Shown here: positions 4,644-41,030 of the stretch, piece after piece
Position numbering within the stretch: position 1 is the first letter of the stretch
How the letters are laid out: each line of letters opens with the position of its first letter
Source of the DNA: a phage
Sequence record: NC_129898.1
DNA: 64,000 bases
Reading direction: 5' to 3' (one strand)
Made by a program: the position numbers and the translations under genes
The notes under the pieces: model-generated
What the model was told of the DNA's origin: nothing
What the model saw: the letters and a program-made list of their open reading frames with translations, nothing else
Database searches by the model: none

Positions 4644-5042
4644 TCAGTCTAGCTTTTCTTCAACAACCCCGTAGCTCGGGGCAGAGTCAAGAGCTTTTTG
4701 GTTTAAAAGTGGTGTAGCAGAATCTGCAAACGGTGTCCAAGTTTTTGTTCTGGCATTCCAGTAATGCTTCACTCTGGAATCTGGATGCACTATAACAAAA
4801 ACTTTTTCACTTGTCAACACATTAATTTCTTCTACACCCTTGCTGATAATTTCTCCGTCATAGCCCCCAGTCTGGTATCCTTCGTACCAGGTTCTTGCAT
4901 AGGCATAGCCAGCCTGCCAGCATGCAGCCTCCTCCGAGGTGGAGACTACGTAGAAGTCTTTCTCAAATTCTGGGATACGTCCTTGCTTTACGCTCCAAGC
5001 TCCGCGAATTTTCATTGTTACTTTGAAAAGCTTGTTCTTCAT
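4644..5042 (-). CDS. hypothetical protein, paralog of 2433..2828
   Basis: 132 aa; HPDSRVKHYWNARTKTWTP motif shared with 2433..2828. Confidence 0.55.
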   Translation of the reverse strand: MKNKLFKVTMKIRGAWSVKQGRIPEFEKDFYVVSTSEEAACWQAGYAYARTWYEGYQTGGYDGEIISKGVEEINVLTSEKVFVIVHPDSRVKHYWNARTKTWTPFADSATPLLNQKALDSAPSYGVVEEKLD

Positions 5043-5043
5043 A

Positions 5044-5298
5044 CTACCGCTCTACAATCTCTACGTCTGTTCCTACACCGAAGGCATAGTAATGTTCTTC
5101 CCCAAAGTAATACTTGGGGACACCAGCTTTGATCAGGTCTAACCCGCGAATAAATACCACACCGTGTGATACAGTGGAATGCTTCTGACGCACAGGATCG
5201 TTGTCAGGCAACCATTCAAAGTACACCGCAGGTACAACCTTCCCTTTAAGAAAGGATTGCCCCAAGTAGACGTTAGAATCAAGAATTTTGACCTTCAT
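5044..5298 (-). CDS. hypothetical protein (MKVK / VEIVE family)
   Basis: 84 aa; MKVKILDSNVYLGQ..., C-terminal DVEIVER. Confidence 0.55.
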   Translation of the reverse strand: MKVKILDSNVYLGQSFLKGKVVPAVYFEWLPDNDPVRQKHSTVSHGVVFIRGLDLIKAGVPKYYFGEEHYYAFGVGTDVEIVER

Positions 5299-5512
5299 GA
5301 TCGTCCTCCACTATCTCCACATCCTCCCCTAGGGCAAAGTTGTAGGTCCACTGACTGTCAAAGCAGTCCTGAGATGCTCCAGCGGCAATAAGATCTGCAC
5401 CCTTTATTTTTAAAAGGTCAGGATAATCTTCGTTAGGGACAGCGGTAAACACTTTACCCACTAAAGGCTCCTGACCAATATAGAAGTTTGAATCTAAAAC
5501 TTTAACTTTCAT
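5279..5512 (-). CDS. hypothetical protein (MKVK / VEIVE family)
   Basis: 77 aa; MKVKVLDSNFYIGQ..., EDVEIVEDD; clear paralog of 5044..5298. Confidence 0.55.
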   Translation of the reverse strand: MKVKVLDSNFYIGQEPLVGKVFTAVPNEDYPDLLKIKGADLIAAGASQDCFDSQWTYNFALGEDVEIVEDDHEGQNS

Positions 5513-24714: not shown

Positions 24715-25525
24715 ACCTGGTCTCCAAAATGTATTGTAGTTCTTTCTTGCCTATACTCTTCATTCCAGCAGTCTTACCTGCTTCTTCTTGAAAAGAAGAA
24801 TAGCATTCAGCAAACACTCTGTCAACACCATCAACTAAAGATTTTATGAAATATGTTGATTCTTCAGATTTTGGGTCATCCTTCCCCAATACTTTTCCAG
24901 CATTATACCCAACACGCCTTATGCAGAAGTCGTAGTCATCTGGTGTACTAAAAGAAAATAGCTTATTCTCCCCAATCTCTACAGGATCCCTATTGCACAC
25001 CTTTTTCTCCCAAATTTGGAAAACACATGGCACGTCATAAGGTTTGCCGTTGAGTAAAAACGAGTTCTTGGGGCACCTTTCGCTGTAAATAAGGTGCATC
25101 GACATGTCCAGTTTGTTTGCAAAAAATATTTTTTCAAATGTCCGTGGCAAGATGAAGGCTATAGCCCCACCAGGCTCTAGCAATGATGCACAGTGGTTAA
25201 AAAACTTGCAAGCTAAAGACGAATTTTTGCCGAATGGAGGATTACCTATGAAGACATCAGCTTTAGGGTACACCTCTAAGAAGTTTGCCTTAATACACGG
25301 TGTTGGGCCTTCAAATTCAGGATCTGGTACCAAATCGTACGACAGTATCTCTGAAAATAGTTTTGAAAAAGAACCCTTTCCAGCAGAAGGCTCAACGTAT
25401 GCACAACTCCCATACTTACCTTTTACTTTACCAACAAGATATTCTGCATACTCAGGGTCTGTGTAATATTTGTCGTTGGACTCTTTCTTGCTCAAGGTGC
25501 CTCCAAAATGAAAAGGGAGGCGCAA
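24689..25525 (-). CDS. DNA N6-adenine methyltransferase (NPPF motif)
   Basis: VFIGNPPFGKNSSLA catalytic motif; 278 aa. Confidence 0.65.
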   Translation of the reverse strand: MRLPFHFGGTLSKKESNDKYYTDPEYAEYLVGKVKGKYGSCAYVEPSAGKGSFSKLFSEILSYDLVPDPEFEGPTPCIKANFLEVYPKADVFIGNPPFGKNSSLACKFFNHCASLLEPGGAIAFILPRTFEKIFFANKLDMSMHLIYSERCPKNSFLLNGKPYDVPCVFQIWEKKVCNRDPVEIGENKLFSFSTPDDYDFCIRRVGYNAGKVLGKDDPKSEESTYFIKSLVDGVDRVFAECYSSFQEEAGKTAGMKSIGKKELQYILETRYDQKYRLD

Positions 25526-25533
25526 GCCTCCCT
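25505..25533 (-). terminator. intrinsic terminator
   Basis: AGGGAGGC-GCAA-GCCTCCCT; on the minus strand followed by TTTTCATTTT; 3' of 25541..26524. Confidence 0.6.
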
Positions 25534-25540
25534 CTACTTG

Positions 25541-26524
25541 TCAGATTATCTGAATCAGGGTGTTTTTCATCTCTTCTCGGGTACGGATGTTGTTACGATC
25601 ACGAACAACAGACCCACAACCTTCGCAGCGGTAGGTTTTAAATGCACTCAGTTGAGTATACGCCAAAGCCTCTTCCTCGTGAAGGTGTTCTCCACCACAA
25701 CGTGGGCAACGAACTTTTGACTCCTCATCTTGGTAGTACAACGACATGTTGGGGTGCTGCTTAGCAAACGGACGCGCCAGCAAATACAGTCCTTCCAGAG
25801 ACAAGATGTCCCCAACATTATACTCCCGCATCTGTTTAAACGCCTCAAGATCACCATGAACACACTTGATCCACATTTCAAATGTGTGGTCAATTAGTTT
25901 CTGTCTGGCCAGTTGGAAGTATTTACATGCATACTCTAACGTGTTTGCATTCAAACGGAATGCCTTTTTAATCATCTTGAGGGTGTCAACCTCTTTGTAT
26001 GGGCTTGTTGGCGGCAAACCGTGAAATGCAAATCGTTGGTTAGCCCACCCACAGTCAAAACCAGAGTTGTGTGCTACTGCGACATCACATTTATCCAAAT
26101 AATACCACAAATCTTGAATCAGCTCAAGATCGTTGTGGATATCCTCGCCCCACATTTTGTAATCAGGAAGAGCACAGTCAACCACGCTAGGGCTGTCTAA
26201 CCATTTACCTGCGAAAGTTAGCATATAGGGCATAATTTCAATACCGCAGGTTTGAATGTTGGTCTTATAATGCCCAAAGAACCAGCCGTTTGTTGGGGAT
26301 GTCTCTGTATCATACACCCAAACTTTAGCACCTTTGTGTTCTTCAAGGAAGCGCTCCGTTGCCTCTCCTACAATCTCTGACATATTCTCTTGTGCACGTT
26401 TAAGCTGTAGCCGGATCCAGCTCTCACGTGACTCACTACCTAAAAATTCACGAGCAATTTGTCTATTAGTGTATCCCTGTTGCTTCAGTGTTAAAATTTG
26501 CTCAAGAGTTAACTTTGTCATCAT
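25541..26524 (-). CDS. DEDD-family 3'-5' exonuclease with N-terminal HTH
   Basis: VWVYDTETS (Exo I), VAHNSGFDCGW (Exo II), H...D (Exo III); N-terminal GYTNRQIAREF HTH-like segment. Confidence 0.6.
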   Translation of the reverse strand: MMTKLTLEQILTLKQQGYTNRQIAREFLGSESRESWIRLQLKRAQENMSEIVGEATERFLEEHKGAKVWVYDTETSPTNGWFFGHYKTNIQTCGIEIMPYMLTFAGKWLDSPSVVDCALPDYKMWGEDIHNDLELIQDLWYYLDKCDVAVAHNSGFDCGWANQRFAFHGLPPTSPYKEVDTLKMIKKAFRLNANTLEYACKYFQLARQKLIDHTFEMWIKCVHGDLEAFKQMREYNVGDILSLEGLYLLARPFAKQHPNMSLYYQDEESKVRCPRCGGEHLHEEEALAYTQLSAFKTYRCEGCGSVVRDRNNIRTREEMKNTLIQII

Positions 26525-26536
26525 CGTTAAGATTCC

Positions 26537-26758
26537 TTAGTAAAACTGAAGAATGTCTTTTAAAGCGAAGTCACGATATTCGCCCTTGTCTACATCAAAT
26601 GCATGCATCAACCACTGCTCTTCTTTATGATACTCTGTAGATCCAAACCATAAACTAGGCTCAGTAACGCAGCGATCTGCAACAACACCTTTCCAGTTAC
26701 GGTATTTCATTCTGATCAGAACTGAATCGCAAGGATTGAATACCTTTTTCATCCCCAT
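26537..26758 (-). CDS. hypothetical protein
   Basis: 73-aa ORF overlapping the 3' end of 26697..27302; uncertain. Confidence 0.3.
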   Translation of the reverse strand: MGMKKVFNPCDSVLIRMKYRNWKGVVADRCVTEPSLWFGSTEYHKEEQWLMHAFDVDKGEYRDFALKDILQFY

Positions 26759-27302
26759 AGAAATCTCTCTCCTCAGTTTTCTTTATAAACTCCTGCATGT
26801 ATGCCTCAATAGCCTCATGCTTGGTGTACTCTGAATTAATGACAAGATCGAGATCCGATTCTGCCCGTGCAATAATCGTAGCCTTAGAGCATCTCCTCAA
26901 GAACTTTGTCATATCATCTCTGTAGTTTTTGTGGAGCGGGAAGTCGCTGTAGTCTTTCTCCAGATAGTCAGCCATCCGGCGCAACGCCTCTGATAAACTG
27001 CAATCTGTGTACTCGTTACAGTATTTCATCCAGTATTTAAGCACATACCCCTCGAAGGTATTAGTGCATTGGGACAAAACACCCCTGCAACGACCAGTCA
27101 GATGATCATGATCTAAACAAGGCTTACGAAGTGGTTCACACAAGATCGGATCAAGACCATCCTGCTCTTCTGACAATTCTTTTCGAAAGTTGGCTATGTC
27201 CTTAGAATCTTTTAGCCACCCGCTATGAACGGGGGCTTTGACAGCTTTCTTTCTTATTTTACGCTTTGCGATAATCCCTCCAGATGCGCCCTGCCTATCC
27301 AA
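26697..27302 (-). CDS. recombination endonuclease VII-like (His-Cys box)
   Basis: CEPLRKPCLDHDHLTGRCRGVLSQCTN matches the endonuclease VII Zn/HNH core. Confidence 0.7.
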   Translation of the reverse strand: MDRQGASGGIIAKRKIRKKAVKAPVHSGWLKDSKDIANFRKELSEEQDGLDPILCEPLRKPCLDHDHLTGRCRGVLSQCTNTFEGYVLKYWMKYCNEYTDCSLSEALRRMADYLEKDYSDFPLHKNYRDDMTKFLRRCSKATIIARAESDLDLVINSEYTKHEAIEAYMQEFIKKTEERDFYGDEKGIQSLRFSSDQNEIP

Positions 27303-27883
27303 TAAGCATCTGCAAGATCGGCCTTACCTTGTACCAAATTGATCCCATCCAGGAACCCCGGTTCAGATACTTCGCAGGCCTTAACCATCAACTTTTTATC
27401 CATCGTAACAGGTTTCTTCACAGTATGCTCTTTACCTGTCCTTTTGTCAAGCTTTTTCTTCTCCTCAAAAGCAAGTTCTTCAGGAAGATGACTACGAGCA
27501 AACTTTTTGGCAGTTGTTGGTGTCACTGTGTGGACCTTAAACAGGCCGTCATTTTCACAATCTGCTAAAGCATCCCAAAGCATAACTTCAAGACCATAAA
27601 ACAACCCAGCCAGTTCACGTGTGGCATCTCCTCGCGATCCGAAGGAGAGCCCTTCCATAACCACGGTGTCAACGCCGTGCGTGTGGATATAATATCTAAC
27701 CTGTTTGCAGATCCAGTCAATACGCTCAGCAGCTGTTGCAAAAGAAACCGTCCCTGGTTTCTTTTCTTTTGCAGACGAGCTTTGGGTTCGTAACACAACC
27801 TTATGAACAGGCCTACCATCGTCCCATACAACGCAGGCCGTGTGGGTAAGAGACTGGTCTATAGACAGCAGTCTTTCTCTCAT
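27254..27883 (-). CDS. RuvC-like Holliday junction resolvase
   Basis: N-terminal LSIDQSLTHTACVV (catalytic D), C-terminal DLADAYWIG resembling RuvC DAADA. Confidence 0.55.
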   Translation of the reverse strand: MRERLLSIDQSLTHTACVVWDDGRPVHKVVLRTQSSSAKEKKPGTVSFATAAERIDWICKQVRYYIHTHGVDTVVMEGLSFGSRGDATRELAGLFYGLEVMLWDALADCENDGLFKVHTVTPTTAKKFARSHLPEELAFEEKKKLDKRTGKEHTVKKPVTMDKKLMVKACEVSEPGFLDGINLVQGKADLADAYWIGRAHLEGLSQSVK

Positions 27884-28206
27884 GCTGTCTCCTCTTCATC
27901 TGGGGCATAAGCTTTGTCTTTGAACAACACAAGGGAGCAAAGCTTAACATCTGTTTCCACACTGGTAAACATGCATAACCGCTCGCCCTCGATCAGCTCA
28001 CAGTCCTCTTTTAAAACAGCAGACCATACACGATCATCTGCGTAATCATCAGTATACAAGATGTATGCAATAGTGTCATCTTCATACAACCGCCACATAC
28101 CTGTGGCAACAATAAATGTATTTTTTGTTTTAATGGTGCCTGTTGTATGGTCATCCTCAAAAACAGCTTCCATAATTGCATTATCTACAGAGTTTTTAGT
28201 CATCAA
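27880..28206 (-). CDS. hypothetical protein
   Basis: 108-aa ORF. Confidence 0.45.
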   Translation of the reverse strand: MMTKNSVDNAIMEAVFEDDHTTGTIKTKNTFIVATGMWRLYEDDTIAYILYTDDYADDRVWSAVLKEDCELIEGERLCMFTSVETDVKLCSLVLFKDKAYAPDEEETA

Positions 28207-29342
28207 ATTGCTCCAACATTTCTAAGAACATTAACAAGTTTTGTTTGGTCATTGAATGATCGCTTCATATACAAACAGTCGAAAATTATACTCATCCACT
28301 GACCTACGGAAATCCTACGGTCGATACCATTGAAATCAGTATACTTAACGGCACCTTTCGGAAACCATTTTTTATACTGATCAATGATTGCTAACCACAT
28401 CTCCTTCGGTGTGCTGCACTGAGACAGCAAGGAGAATGCAGATGCATCTCCAAACTTTCCTTTACCAATAAGCCCTTGGTAAGGCTTAATATTGTCAGCT
28501 GAGTCACCACATAGCATTTGATAACCGAAGAACAACATTCCATACCCACCAACATCTCCGTTTGGTTTCATGAATATGTTACCCATACCGTTATCAATAA
28601 GCATAGGAGTTTCTCTTACAAAATCACCTTTATCGTTCCTCATCGGATCGAATACAAGCCCAGGAAGTGTTCGCTGGTCCTTATCTATAGAGATAATAAA
28701 CTTGTTGAACTTACCTGTTTTCTGGTAGTGGTTCCAACCTTCAAATTGCTGGATAGCTAACCAGTCGTCAGCTTCAATACCGTTGATCACCTGAGCGTTA
28801 TACTGCTTTTGGAGATACTGTCTTGCATCTTCAAGCAACAGTGGTCGAAGAGTATTGTTACGGTTGGCTTTATATCGTTCCGGCATGGGAAGATCTAGTC
28901 TGAAATTACCTGTGCCTCCAAGCACTCCTACGCACCGATCTTCAGGAATACCAAGATAGTTAAGGACTGCGTTAGCTTTACACTTAATTGTGTGCAAGCA
29001 GTTCTCTACAGGATCAGGGGTTTGGATATCCAAGACATCGAAATCTTCACGTGTCCACGGAATAAACTCCTTGCCAGCTTTTTTACATGCAGCTTCACGG
29101 TTGGTGTTCTCAGCCTTTAACCAACCGCCAACTGCGTTCTTCTGCCTCCCCCAAAACTCTGTTCGTGTTTTGAACACCTTCTTACGTCCGGAGGCTTTAT
29201 GTGTTACCTCAATTGTCCTTTTTTCACAACTTGCTGCAGCTTGATATGCAACCTGATCGAAGTCATAATAAACTATAGCGTCAGGTTCAAGAAGATCAGC
29301 TAGACAATCTATGGACTCAATAAGTGGATATTCTCTACTCAA
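28203..29342 (-). CDS. FEN-family 5'-3' exonuclease / RNase H-like
   Basis: IVYYDFDQVAYQAA, GIEADDWLAIQQF and FIISIDKDQRTL match the three acidic motifs of Pol I 5' nuclease / T4 RNase H. Confidence 0.7.
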   Translation of the reverse strand: MSREYPLIESIDCLADLLEPDAIVYYDFDQVAYQAAASCEKRTIEVTHKASGRKKVFKTRTEFWGRQKNAVGGWLKAENTNREAACKKAGKEFIPWTREDFDVLDIQTPDPVENCLHTIKCKANAVLNYLGIPEDRCVGVLGGTGNFRLDLPMPERYKANRNNTLRPLLLEDARQYLQKQYNAQVINGIEADDWLAIQQFEGWNHYQKTGKFNKFIISIDKDQRTLPGLVFDPMRNDKGDFVRETPMLIDNGMGNIFMKPNGDVGGYGMLFFGYQMLCGDSADNIKPYQGLIGKGKFGDASAFSLLSQCSTPKEMWLAIIDQYKKWFPKGAVKYTDFNGIDRRISVGQWMSIIFDCLYMKRSFNDQTKLVNVLRNVGAI

Positions 29343-40045: not shown

Positions 40046-40117
40046 GCCCTGTTAGCTTAGTGGATAAAGCAGCGGCCTTCTAAGCCGTTGACACTGGTTC
40101 GAGTCCAGTACGGGGTG
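40046..40117 (+). tRNA. tRNA-Arg (anticodon TCT)
   Basis: Acceptor GCCCTGT/ACGGGGT, D-stem GCTT/AAGC, anticodon loop CTTCTAA, T-loop TTCGAGT, CCA encoded. Confidence 0.8.
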
Positions 40118-40250
40118 CCAAGTTCTTTTTAATGTAGCTTACTTTAGCAGAGTAAATCTTCGGCAAGTGGCGGTAACCACTTTACCGATACCTCATAGTT
40201 AGTGGTGAGAACACTAGCTATTTTAAAAAGAATTTAAATATTAGTATTTA

Positions 40251-40335
40251 GGTGAGTTAATTCCGTAGGGGTAGCGGGGCAGACTGTAAATCTGTTATCA
40301 TTGCGATTCGGGTGGTTCGACTCCATCACTCACCA
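40251..40335 (+). tRNA. tRNA-Tyr (anticodon GTA), long variable arm
   Basis: Acceptor GGTGAGT/ACTCACC, anticodon loop CTGTAAA, T-loop TTCGACT, discriminator A, CCA encoded. Confidence 0.75.
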
Positions 40336-40452
40336 CCAAATTTATATTTTTAAATGCATAAATCATACAGATAATGGCATTGATATTTATCGTCGTTTAT
40401 ACTAGTCACTAACTGCTCGAAAATCAGTGTCATTATCAGTATTGTTTATAAA

Positions 40453-40540
40453 AGAGGGTAGGGAGCAATGGTGCTCAAGCGGTCTTGAAAACCGTCCCGT
40501 TGAGGATGACTCGATGATGGTTCGATTCCATTATCCTCTG
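40453..40540 (+). tRNA. tRNA-Ser (anticodon TGA), long variable arm
   Basis: Acceptor AGAGGGT/ATCCTCT, anticodon stem GCGGT/ACCGT with loop CTTGAAA, T-loop TTCGATT, discriminator G. Confidence 0.7.
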
Positions 40541-40640
40541 CCATATTGTTGACCTTGTAATTAAGCGAAAGCCGGAAGCAGAACCGGATTATCAAATGTT
40601 ACAGTCGTCATCGCCGACTAGCCACATGGTCAACATATTG

Positions 40641-40737
40641 CGCTAGGTAAGCCCTTTGGCAAGGGCGAGGATTTTTAATCCTGAAAATAGACGAGGTAGT
40701 CGTTGAATACATAGATGGTTCGATTCCATCACCTAGC
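40641..40737 (+). tRNA. atypical 97-nt tRNA-like element (anticodon loop TTTTTAA, possibly UUU)
   Basis: Perfect acceptor GCTAGGT/ACCTAGC, D-stem GCCC/GGGC, canonical T-arm GATGG-TTCGATT-CCATC, but ~30-nt variable region with ACGA-GGTAG-TCGT hairpin. Confidence 0.35.
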
Positions 40738-40743
40738 ACCTTT

Positions 40744-40816
40744 TGCTGATGTAGCACAATTGGCAGTGCAATTGATTTGTAATCAATAGGTTGCAGGTTC
40801 AAGTCCTGCCATCAGC
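40744..40816 (+). tRNA. tRNA-Thr (anticodon TGT)
   Basis: Acceptor GCTGATG/CATCAGC, D-stem GCAC/GTGC, anticodon stem ATTGA/TCAAT with loop TTTGTAA, T-loop TTCAAGT. Confidence 0.8.
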
Positions 40817-40820
40817 ACCA

Positions 40821-40892
40821 TGGCCCTGTAGCTGGAAGGTTCAAGCAAGCGACTCATAATCGCCAGACGGTGGTTCAATTCCACCCAGGGCC
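40821..40892 (+). tRNA. tRNA-Met or Ile2 (anticodon CAT), elongator-type
   Basis: Acceptor GGCCCTG/CAGGGCC with paired 1:72, anticodon loop CTCATAA, T-loop TTCAATT. Confidence 0.7.
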
Positions 40893-40907
40893 ACCAAATT
40901 ATAAATA

Positions 40908-40981
40908 CTCCGCGTAGCTCAGCTTGGTAGAGCGCCTGATTTGGGATCAGGAGGTCGAGTGTTCGAATCACTCCGTGGAGA
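40908..40981 (+). tRNA. tRNA-Pro (anticodon TGG)
   Basis: Acceptor CTCCGCG/CGTGGAG (C1:G72), D-arm GCTCAGCTTGGTAGAGC, anticodon stem CCTGA/TCAGG with loop TTTGGGA, T-loop TTCGAAT. Confidence 0.8.
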
Positions 40982-41030
40982 CCACCTTTAGTTATACTTT
41001 AAACATATACACACAAAAGGAACCTTTAAA

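Follow-up and report, generated by a model that had tools for sequence, protein, structure and literature searches.

The exonuclease gene and its neighbours

The stretch of DNA analysed (64,000 nt; hereafter the window) is that of a Vequintavirus, an rV5/FV3-like coliphage. The ORF listing gives a single long reading frame at exactly 25541-26524 on the minus strand; the frame and the motifs quoted from it in the preliminary description are all present in the translation, and the strand is newly given here. A Shine-Dalgarno-like motif, AAGGA (read directly from the sequence), lies 9 nt 5' of the ATG, and the TAA of the preceding gene falls inside that 9-nt stretch. Given the position of this motif, the N-terminal segment of the protein is very likely translated. 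The gene and the features around it are:

25502..25535 (hairpin 25535-25512), minus strand: strong intrinsic-terminator-like hairpin (terminator scan, sequence read directly)
25541..26524, minus strand: predicted stand-alone DEDDy 3'-5' exonuclease, complete gene (ATG start, 327 aa; stop codon 25541-25543)
26697-27302, minus strand: endonuclease VII (EndoVII; PF02945)
27254-27883, minus strand: RuvC-like resolvase (phrog_159, E 1.8e-38)
28203-29342, minus strand: FEN-like 5'-3' exonuclease (phrog_107)

Read along the minus strand, the order is the FEN-like gene, a 108-aa protein, the RuvC-like gene, EndoVII, a 73-aa protein, the exonuclease, the hairpin and an N6-adenine methyltransferase-like gene, beyond which, in the same direction, are genes for ThyX and ribonucleotide reductases. 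The hairpin, which separates the exonuclease from the methyltransferase-like gene, is found 6 nt past the exonuclease stop codon and consists of a 10-bp stem around GGGAGGC-TTGC-GCCTCCC, then TCATTTTGGA, with a T-rich tail.

Several details of the surrounding annotation are worth recording. The RuvC-like Holliday-junction resolvase adjoins EndoVII, placing two junction-resolving nucleases side by side, and the FV3 and Bas59 records call its product just a 'hypothetical protein'. The longest EndoVII ORF (606 nt) overlaps its neighbours at both ends, one of them at 26537-26758 on the minus strand, and the annotated EndoVII start varies across public records, giving 480 nt in Bas59 and 576 nt in FV3. 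The window also carries a tRNA cluster (40046-40984), within which ARAGORN reports a 99-nt 'tRNA-???' at 40642-40740 (plus strand) with the four-base anticodon atcc. It may be a tRNA with an intron or some other unusual feature, or else a miscall. The FV3 record has a tRNA cluster of five tRNAs, including an annotated tRNA-Tyr.

The exonuclease gene is already known and annotated. Its DNA is 98.7% identical to FV3 gp093, and likewise to Escherichia phage HMD-6 and others, and 120 deposited phage records, nearly all of rV5/FV3-like Vequintavirus, match it at >=90% nucleotide identity. The public names include "DnaQ-like 3'-5' exonuclease", "DNA polymerase exonuclease subunit", "DNA polymerase/exonuclease" and "hypothetical protein". 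A search of complete Escherichia coli genomes returned 0 matches, so the gene is not a prophage gene in those genomes. As a discovery the gene matters little, being present in those 120 genomes and already named an exonuclease. What the public records give is the exonuclease name; a helix-turn-helix (HTH) and a zinc ribbon are absent from the annotation.

Domain layout of the protein

Sequence motifs and structural modelling identify the product as an RNase H-fold exonuclease of the DEDDy type, with a predicted HTH-like head and a predicted Cys4 ribbon tail. The parts are as follows, all on the minus strand:

26390..26512: three-helix HTH-like module, residues 5-45 (AlphaFold2, weak HTH matches)
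26333..26389: helical linker from the HTH-like module to the core, residues 46-64 (AlphaFold2, alignments)
25760..26332: RNase H-fold DEDDy exonuclease core, residues 65-255 (invariant catalytic residues, Foldseek)
26303-26311: Exo I, D72/E74, within VWVYDTETS (translation)
26054-26068: Exo II, N153..D157, within HNSGFDCGW (translation)
25808-25822: Exo III, YNVGD, with Y235 and D239 (translation)
25589..25723: four-cysteine zinc ribbon, residues 268-312 (C273, C276, C300, C303)
25547..25579: C-terminal amphipathic helix, residues 316-326 (AlphaFold2, pLDDT ~65)

The five residues D72, E74, D157, Y235 and D239 are invariant in an alignment of 81 sequences, a biased sample made up largely of one marine clade, and also, wherever the region is covered, in an unbiased set of 150 family representatives. 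The Exo III motif has the Y-x3-D form (Y235 in 150/150 representatives and 81/81 aligned homologues), and for this reason the enzyme is assigned to the DEDDy class. To that class belong the proofreading domains of family A and B polymerases, RNase D and the WRN exonuclease, while DnaQ, RNase T and DexA are of the DEDDh type. The full-length AlphaFold2 model (mean pLDDT 82, pTM 0.70) was matched by Foldseek at probability 1.0 to E. coli epsilon, to the exonuclease domains of Pfu, Pol epsilon, Pol II, HSV-1 and DinG, and to RNase T, at identities of just 10-17%. The DEDD core claimed at the outset is thus well founded, both in its invariant acidic residues and in its fold. Neither a sequence search nor a fold search of the PDB returned a close relative with a solved structure; the nearest viral structure models are the LKA1 "YprB RNase H-like" protein and similar proteins. 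The conservation of the motifs together with the HTH-like and ribbon features is far beyond chance.

The HTH-like N-terminal segment that had been proposed was recovered by structure prediction as a three-helix HTH-like fold. It contains TLKQQGYTNRQIAREF at residues 11-26, and its putative recognition helix is SRESWIRLQLKR. Modelled alone together with 31 homologous N-termini, residues 1-45 gave a pLDDT of 88.5 and helices at 7-15, 20-28 and 31-44; in the full-length model, residues 1-40 have pLDDT values of 77-88, and the helices are at 7-15 and 20-28, followed by a long helix at 34-62. Over residues 41-60 of the last helix pLDDT is ~66, and because of this lower model confidence the linker is probably flexible. 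Residues 46-64 are poorly conserved and show indels in the alignments. The N-terminal segment itself can be aligned across relatives.

Profile searches point to the same kind of fold. The N-terminus of the query gave weak Pfam matches to HTH_38 (18.4 bits, cut-off 27), HTH_7 (17.6 bits, cut-off 23.8), GerE and Sigma70_r4, all of them below the gathering scores. When homologous N-termini were scanned sequence by sequence, the matches were almost exclusively to HTH-type families (MerR, HTH_11, HTH_23, HTH_36, HTH_28, HTH_38, GerE, Sigma70_r4 and homeodomain), and in the PDB the N-terminal profile matched best to the PAI HTH of the Sleeping Beauty transposase (E 0.0034). A Foldseek search with the model of residues 1-45 returned nothing significant (best E 1.2), as can be expected of a query of this length, and its ranking was dominated by HTH proteins: the LuxR/GerE-type EsrB, DosR, DesR and VraR, the Tn3 and gamma-delta resolvases and, also non-significant, the Pax6 paired domain, IstA, SETMAR and small terminase. 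On these sequence and model comparisons, the segment is best described as a putative three-helix HTH of resolvase-, transposase- or LuxR-like kind.

At the other end of the protein, CPRCGGEH (residues 273-280) and CEGCG (300-304) supply two CxxC knuckles, C273-x2-C276 and C300-x2-C303. Of the 150 unbiased representatives, 149 have the complete set of four cysteines, a count that overturned the view that the Cys4 site is confined to close relatives. In the AlphaFold2 model, strands 281-289, 294-300 and 306-310 form a three-stranded ribbon, then a helix, and the sub-threshold Pfam and NCBIfam matches of the C-terminal region are zinc-ribbon models throughout. The zinc-ribbon-like element noted earlier is accordingly retained, as a predicted Cys4 zinc ribbon with its two knuckles on a beta-ribbon. 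The region of residues 316-326 is kept as ...R.R.N....K..M.N.L in close relatives. A divergent marine clade has the ribbon cysteines reduced to C273 and C300. This clade (P0009-P0121; from metagenomes, with loci L008, L009 and L011) is large, and its members retain both the HTH-like head and the DEDDy core. Its exonuclease is found among early genes, including those for an ERF recombinase and DnaA_C-like HTH proteins, in phages of 35-45 kb, and has no adjacent EndoVII.

Size and composition of the family

Membership was assessed with the PHROGs profiles. The protein matches phrog_403, labelled as the phage 'DNA polymerase exonuclease subunit' family, at E 1e-110, with residues 2-326 aligned to positions 2-320 of the 321 in the profile. 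Since the match runs from end to end, the three-part layout is the norm of the family. A HMMER search, exhaustive over 1.84 billion cluster representatives (clusters at 50% identity), found 3,459 clusters at E <= 1e-3, of which 2,463 have E <= 1e-10 and 445 have E <= 1e-30. By tblastn, the exonuclease has matches in 1,526 phage records, among them those of Pseudomonas phage LUZ19 and other phiKMV-like phages, Vibrio phage ICP1, Klebsiella, Xanthomonas, Ralstonia and Cellulophaga phages and several hundred mycobacteriophages.

Pfam places the query itself with sub-threshold matches only (RNase_T, zinc-ribbon models, HTH_38 and HTH_7), and it has no match at E <= 1 to PF13482 (RNase_H_2, YprB-like) or PF10108 (DNA_pol_B_exo2). 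Clear homologues score above the Pfam cut-off of 22 for PF13482/PF10108 (LUZ19, 39.6 bits; HP1, 37.8 bits), and most of the 120 relatives listed carry PF13482, sometimes PF10108.

In 118 of 143 intact representatives (~83%) the core is preceded by an extension of 40 aa or more. The preliminary description regarded the combination of HTH-like segment and exonuclease as an "unusual fusion"; these counts, together with the full-length phrog_403 match, show that it is instead the usual arrangement. No extension is present in 20 of the 143 (~14%), for example HP1 gp09, from which it follows that the core works without one. A scan of 120 extensions found HTH_23 in 22 (best E 1.4e-06), HTH_38 in 17, HTH_SB in 10 and, further, HTH_28, HTH_7, GerE, Sigma70_r4_2 and NUMOD1 (3), and a few family members start with CxxC...CxxC ribbons in place of the HTH. 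Because the extensions match HTH, NUMOD1 or ribbon types in different members, the N-terminal module appears to be a variable, exchangeable small putative DNA-binding domain on a constant core.

The literature searched on YprB in phages, on the phiKMV exonuclease and on escape mutants consisted of genome descriptions only. A candidate member of the family, the 'DnaQ-like exonuclease' Girr gp37 (273 aa) of cluster F1, is moderately cytotoxic on overexpression (PMC11075535), which fits an active nuclease if this putative assignment is correct. In the literature searched, this is the sole experimental result that comes near the family. Because the family is very large, is present in model phages and is biochemically uncharacterised in the literature searched, it makes a cheap and tractable target: it has more than 3,000 clusters and includes LUZ19, ICP1 and the Vequintavirinae of the BASEL collection. 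Its true layout, a small putative DNA-binding module, a DEDDy core and a Cys4 ribbon, is missing from the annotations.

Proposed role and comparison with named systems

As the literature searched contained no biochemical characterisation of any family member, we infer the substrate (DNA or RNA), polarity and partners of the enzyme from its fold alone. The reading towards which we lean, with modest confidence, is that of a DNA-tethered 3'-5' exonuclease for recombination and DNA processing, helped by its HTH and by the neighbouring nucleases. The core would remove nucleotides from DNA 3' ends in a metal-dependent manner, while the HTH on its flexible helical tether, and possibly the ribbon too, would hold the enzyme on DNA. 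It may act alongside the FEN-like 5'-3' exonuclease, the RuvC-like resolvase and EndoVII, and its tasks would be the processing of recombination and replication intermediates and/or the breakdown of host DNA for nucleotide salvage. T7 gp3 and gp6 and T4 DexA perform comparable DNA processing or breakdown, each in its own way. The exchange of small putative DNA-binding modules on a constant core favours DNA targeting over a fixed protein partner.

The gene context was compared at five hand-checked loci. The order 5'-3' exonuclease, EndoVII, phrog_403-type exonuclease is also found in LUZ19, in Pseudoalteromonas phage HP1, where the copy has no HTH, and in a distant rV5-like contig, and is absent from the small marine phages examined and from mycobacteriophage Totinger. 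As EndoVII synteny is absent from the marine clade and the mycobacteriophages, the context supports the proposed pathway for some lineages only. In the distant rV5-like contig (L010), a second DEDD-type nuclease (4724-5347; PF16473, Rv2179c-like 3'-5' exoribonuclease) is found between EndoVII and the phrog_403-type exonuclease.

The public name 'DNA polymerase exonuclease subunit' (PHROG, RefSeq) implies another function, that of a trans-acting, epsilon-like proofreading subunit of the phage or host replicative polymerase, with the HTH or ribbon docking on the replisome. The core does resemble DnaQ-epsilon and the proofreading domains of polymerases, it matches the exonuclease region of the polymerase family phrog_17 (E 2.5e-09), and the LUZ19 exonuclease gene is ~3 kb downstream of the polymerase. 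The name, however, rests on weak similarity: the NCBIfam epsilon equivalogs give 26.7 bits against a cut-off of 196 (NF004316) and 23 against 222.7 (TIGR01406). Scores of about one-tenth of the cut-offs, and the Tyr in place of His in Exo III (Y-x3-D, where epsilon has H-x4-D), led us to reject the protein as a DnaQ/epsilon orthologue.

The location of polymerase genes also argues against a proofreading subunit. A family-A DNA polymerase is absent from the 64,000-nt window; in the closely related Bas59 it is encoded ~45 kb from the exonuclease, in another gene block beside the primase-helicase, and retains its own T7-like Exo I (FDFEASGLLE) and Exo II (HNCYSYDF). The LUZ19 polymerase likewise keeps its Exo I and Exo II motifs, and in mycobacteriophage Totinger, which carries a family member, genes 20-106 include no annotated polymerase. 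The HP1 polymerase, which apparently has no Exo I, was left out of this comparison, as its gene starts at base 19 and was possibly cut by linearisation of the genome. Finally, N-terminal modules that vary between HTH, NUMOD and zinc-ribbon types are unexpected for a conserved protein-protein docking site. A trans-acting proofreader therefore appears unlikely, and is a weaker reading than a DNA-tethered recombination exonuclease. With a DEDDy core, a gene unlinked to the polymerase and a member in a phage with no annotated polymerase in the range covered, the labels "DNA polymerase exonuclease subunit" and "DnaQ-like" are left without evidential backing, and the family is probably misnamed.

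A dual function, in which the HTH binds a specific operator (as a regulator or autoregulator) or one site of the phage genome, such as the origin or the ends, is in our estimation quite improbable. The HTH resembles those of resolvases, transposases and LuxR proteins, kinds that usually read specific sequences; the N-terminal modules are traded between lineages as in homing endonucleases, NUMOD1 included; and the terminator-like hairpin marks this gene as the last of its transcription unit. Yet a single HTH of ~40 residues typically binds weakly and with low specificity as a monomer, and some members, HP1 gp09 among them, have no extension at all. A related speculation, to which we give similarly little weight, is that the family is made up of 'addressed' exonucleases, whose N-terminal modules would steer each of them to a given DNA sequence or structure. 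It is prompted by the constant DEDDy core and Cys4 ribbon combined with interchangeable HTH, NUMOD1 and CxxC modules, and the targets could be genome ends, an origin, a competitor's DNA or host defence DNA. If it were true, the members would be neither generic end-trimmers nor polymerase subunits.

Very unlikely is a counter-defence or RNA nuclease, the DEDD core degrading host immune nucleic acid or trimming RNA 3' ends (retron msDNA, DRT cDNA, signalling oligonucleotides or phage tRNAs being candidate substrates): DEDD enzymes do include RNases (RNase D, RNase T, Orn), the window encodes the tRNA cluster, phage nucleases of a different family are known as retron triggers or antagonists, and PADLOC gives a weak match to a CRISPR-associated DEDDh model (E 4.3e-06), but the family also occurs in phages without tRNAs, for example at the LUZ19 locus, and the gene is placed among DNA-recombination nucleases and nucleotide-metabolism genes. 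Kinship with the retron-activating nuclease Bas24-Exo was considered and rejected, as a retron preprint describes that trigger nuclease as lambda-Exo-like, a type unrelated to the query. The combination of HTH, RNase H fold and zinc ribbon also raised the question of an origin from a DDE transposase. This was rejected as well: the catalytic motifs are Exo I, II and III, the sole transposase in the Foldseek list was Mos1 (3hos; probability 0.33, TM 0.17), and the conserved syntenic position of the gene was counted against transposase mobility.

Compared with named systems, the DNA-tethered exonuclease proposed here shares with E. coli DnaQ (Pol III epsilon) a common RNase H-fold DEDD core, and epsilon is its best PDB match by both sequence and fold. 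The query does not have the C-terminal alpha-binding tail of epsilon, whereas its HTH and zinc ribbon are absent from epsilon. The DEDDy signature, with N-x2-F-D and Y-x3-D, is shared with the proofreading domains of family B polymerases (Pfu, Pol epsilon, Pol II, HSV-1, RB69) and with PF10108 and PF13482; unlike those polymerases, the query stands alone, with no polymerase domain. The predicted three-helix N-terminal module has in common with the HTHs of resolvases, Tc1-mariner PAI and LuxR-GerE proteins, which are its best weak matches and all below the family cut-offs, the pattern L-x3-I-x2-L-x3-G-x-(S/T)-x-R-x-I-A...(S/T)-x2-(T/W)-(I/V)-x-R, but those are carried on a recombinase, a transposase or a receiver domain, and that of the query on an exonuclease.

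T4 DexA is likewise a stand-alone 3'-5' exonuclease of a phage and belongs to the broad DEDD superfamily, but has neither the HTH nor the zinc ribbon. The protein had been assigned to the "T4 DexA type", which does not hold: DexA falls in phrog_255 (E 3.6e-91) with no match to phrog_403, an hhalign comparison with the exonuclease gives a probability of 0.13%, BLASTP aligns a misregistered fragment at E 0.036, and the query is DEDDy rather than DEDDh. Kinship was rejected on these grounds, and the two share at most an ancestry at superfamily level and possibly an analogous role in DNA breakdown and replication. The true counterparts are the phrog_403 relatives, namely FV3 gp093, Bas59_0178, the LUZ19 'exonuclease' (348 aa), ICP1 gp189 and the LKA1 'YprB RNase H-like' protein, which have the same DEDDy core and Cys4 ribbon, in most cases with an N-terminal extension, and differ from the query in nothing material.
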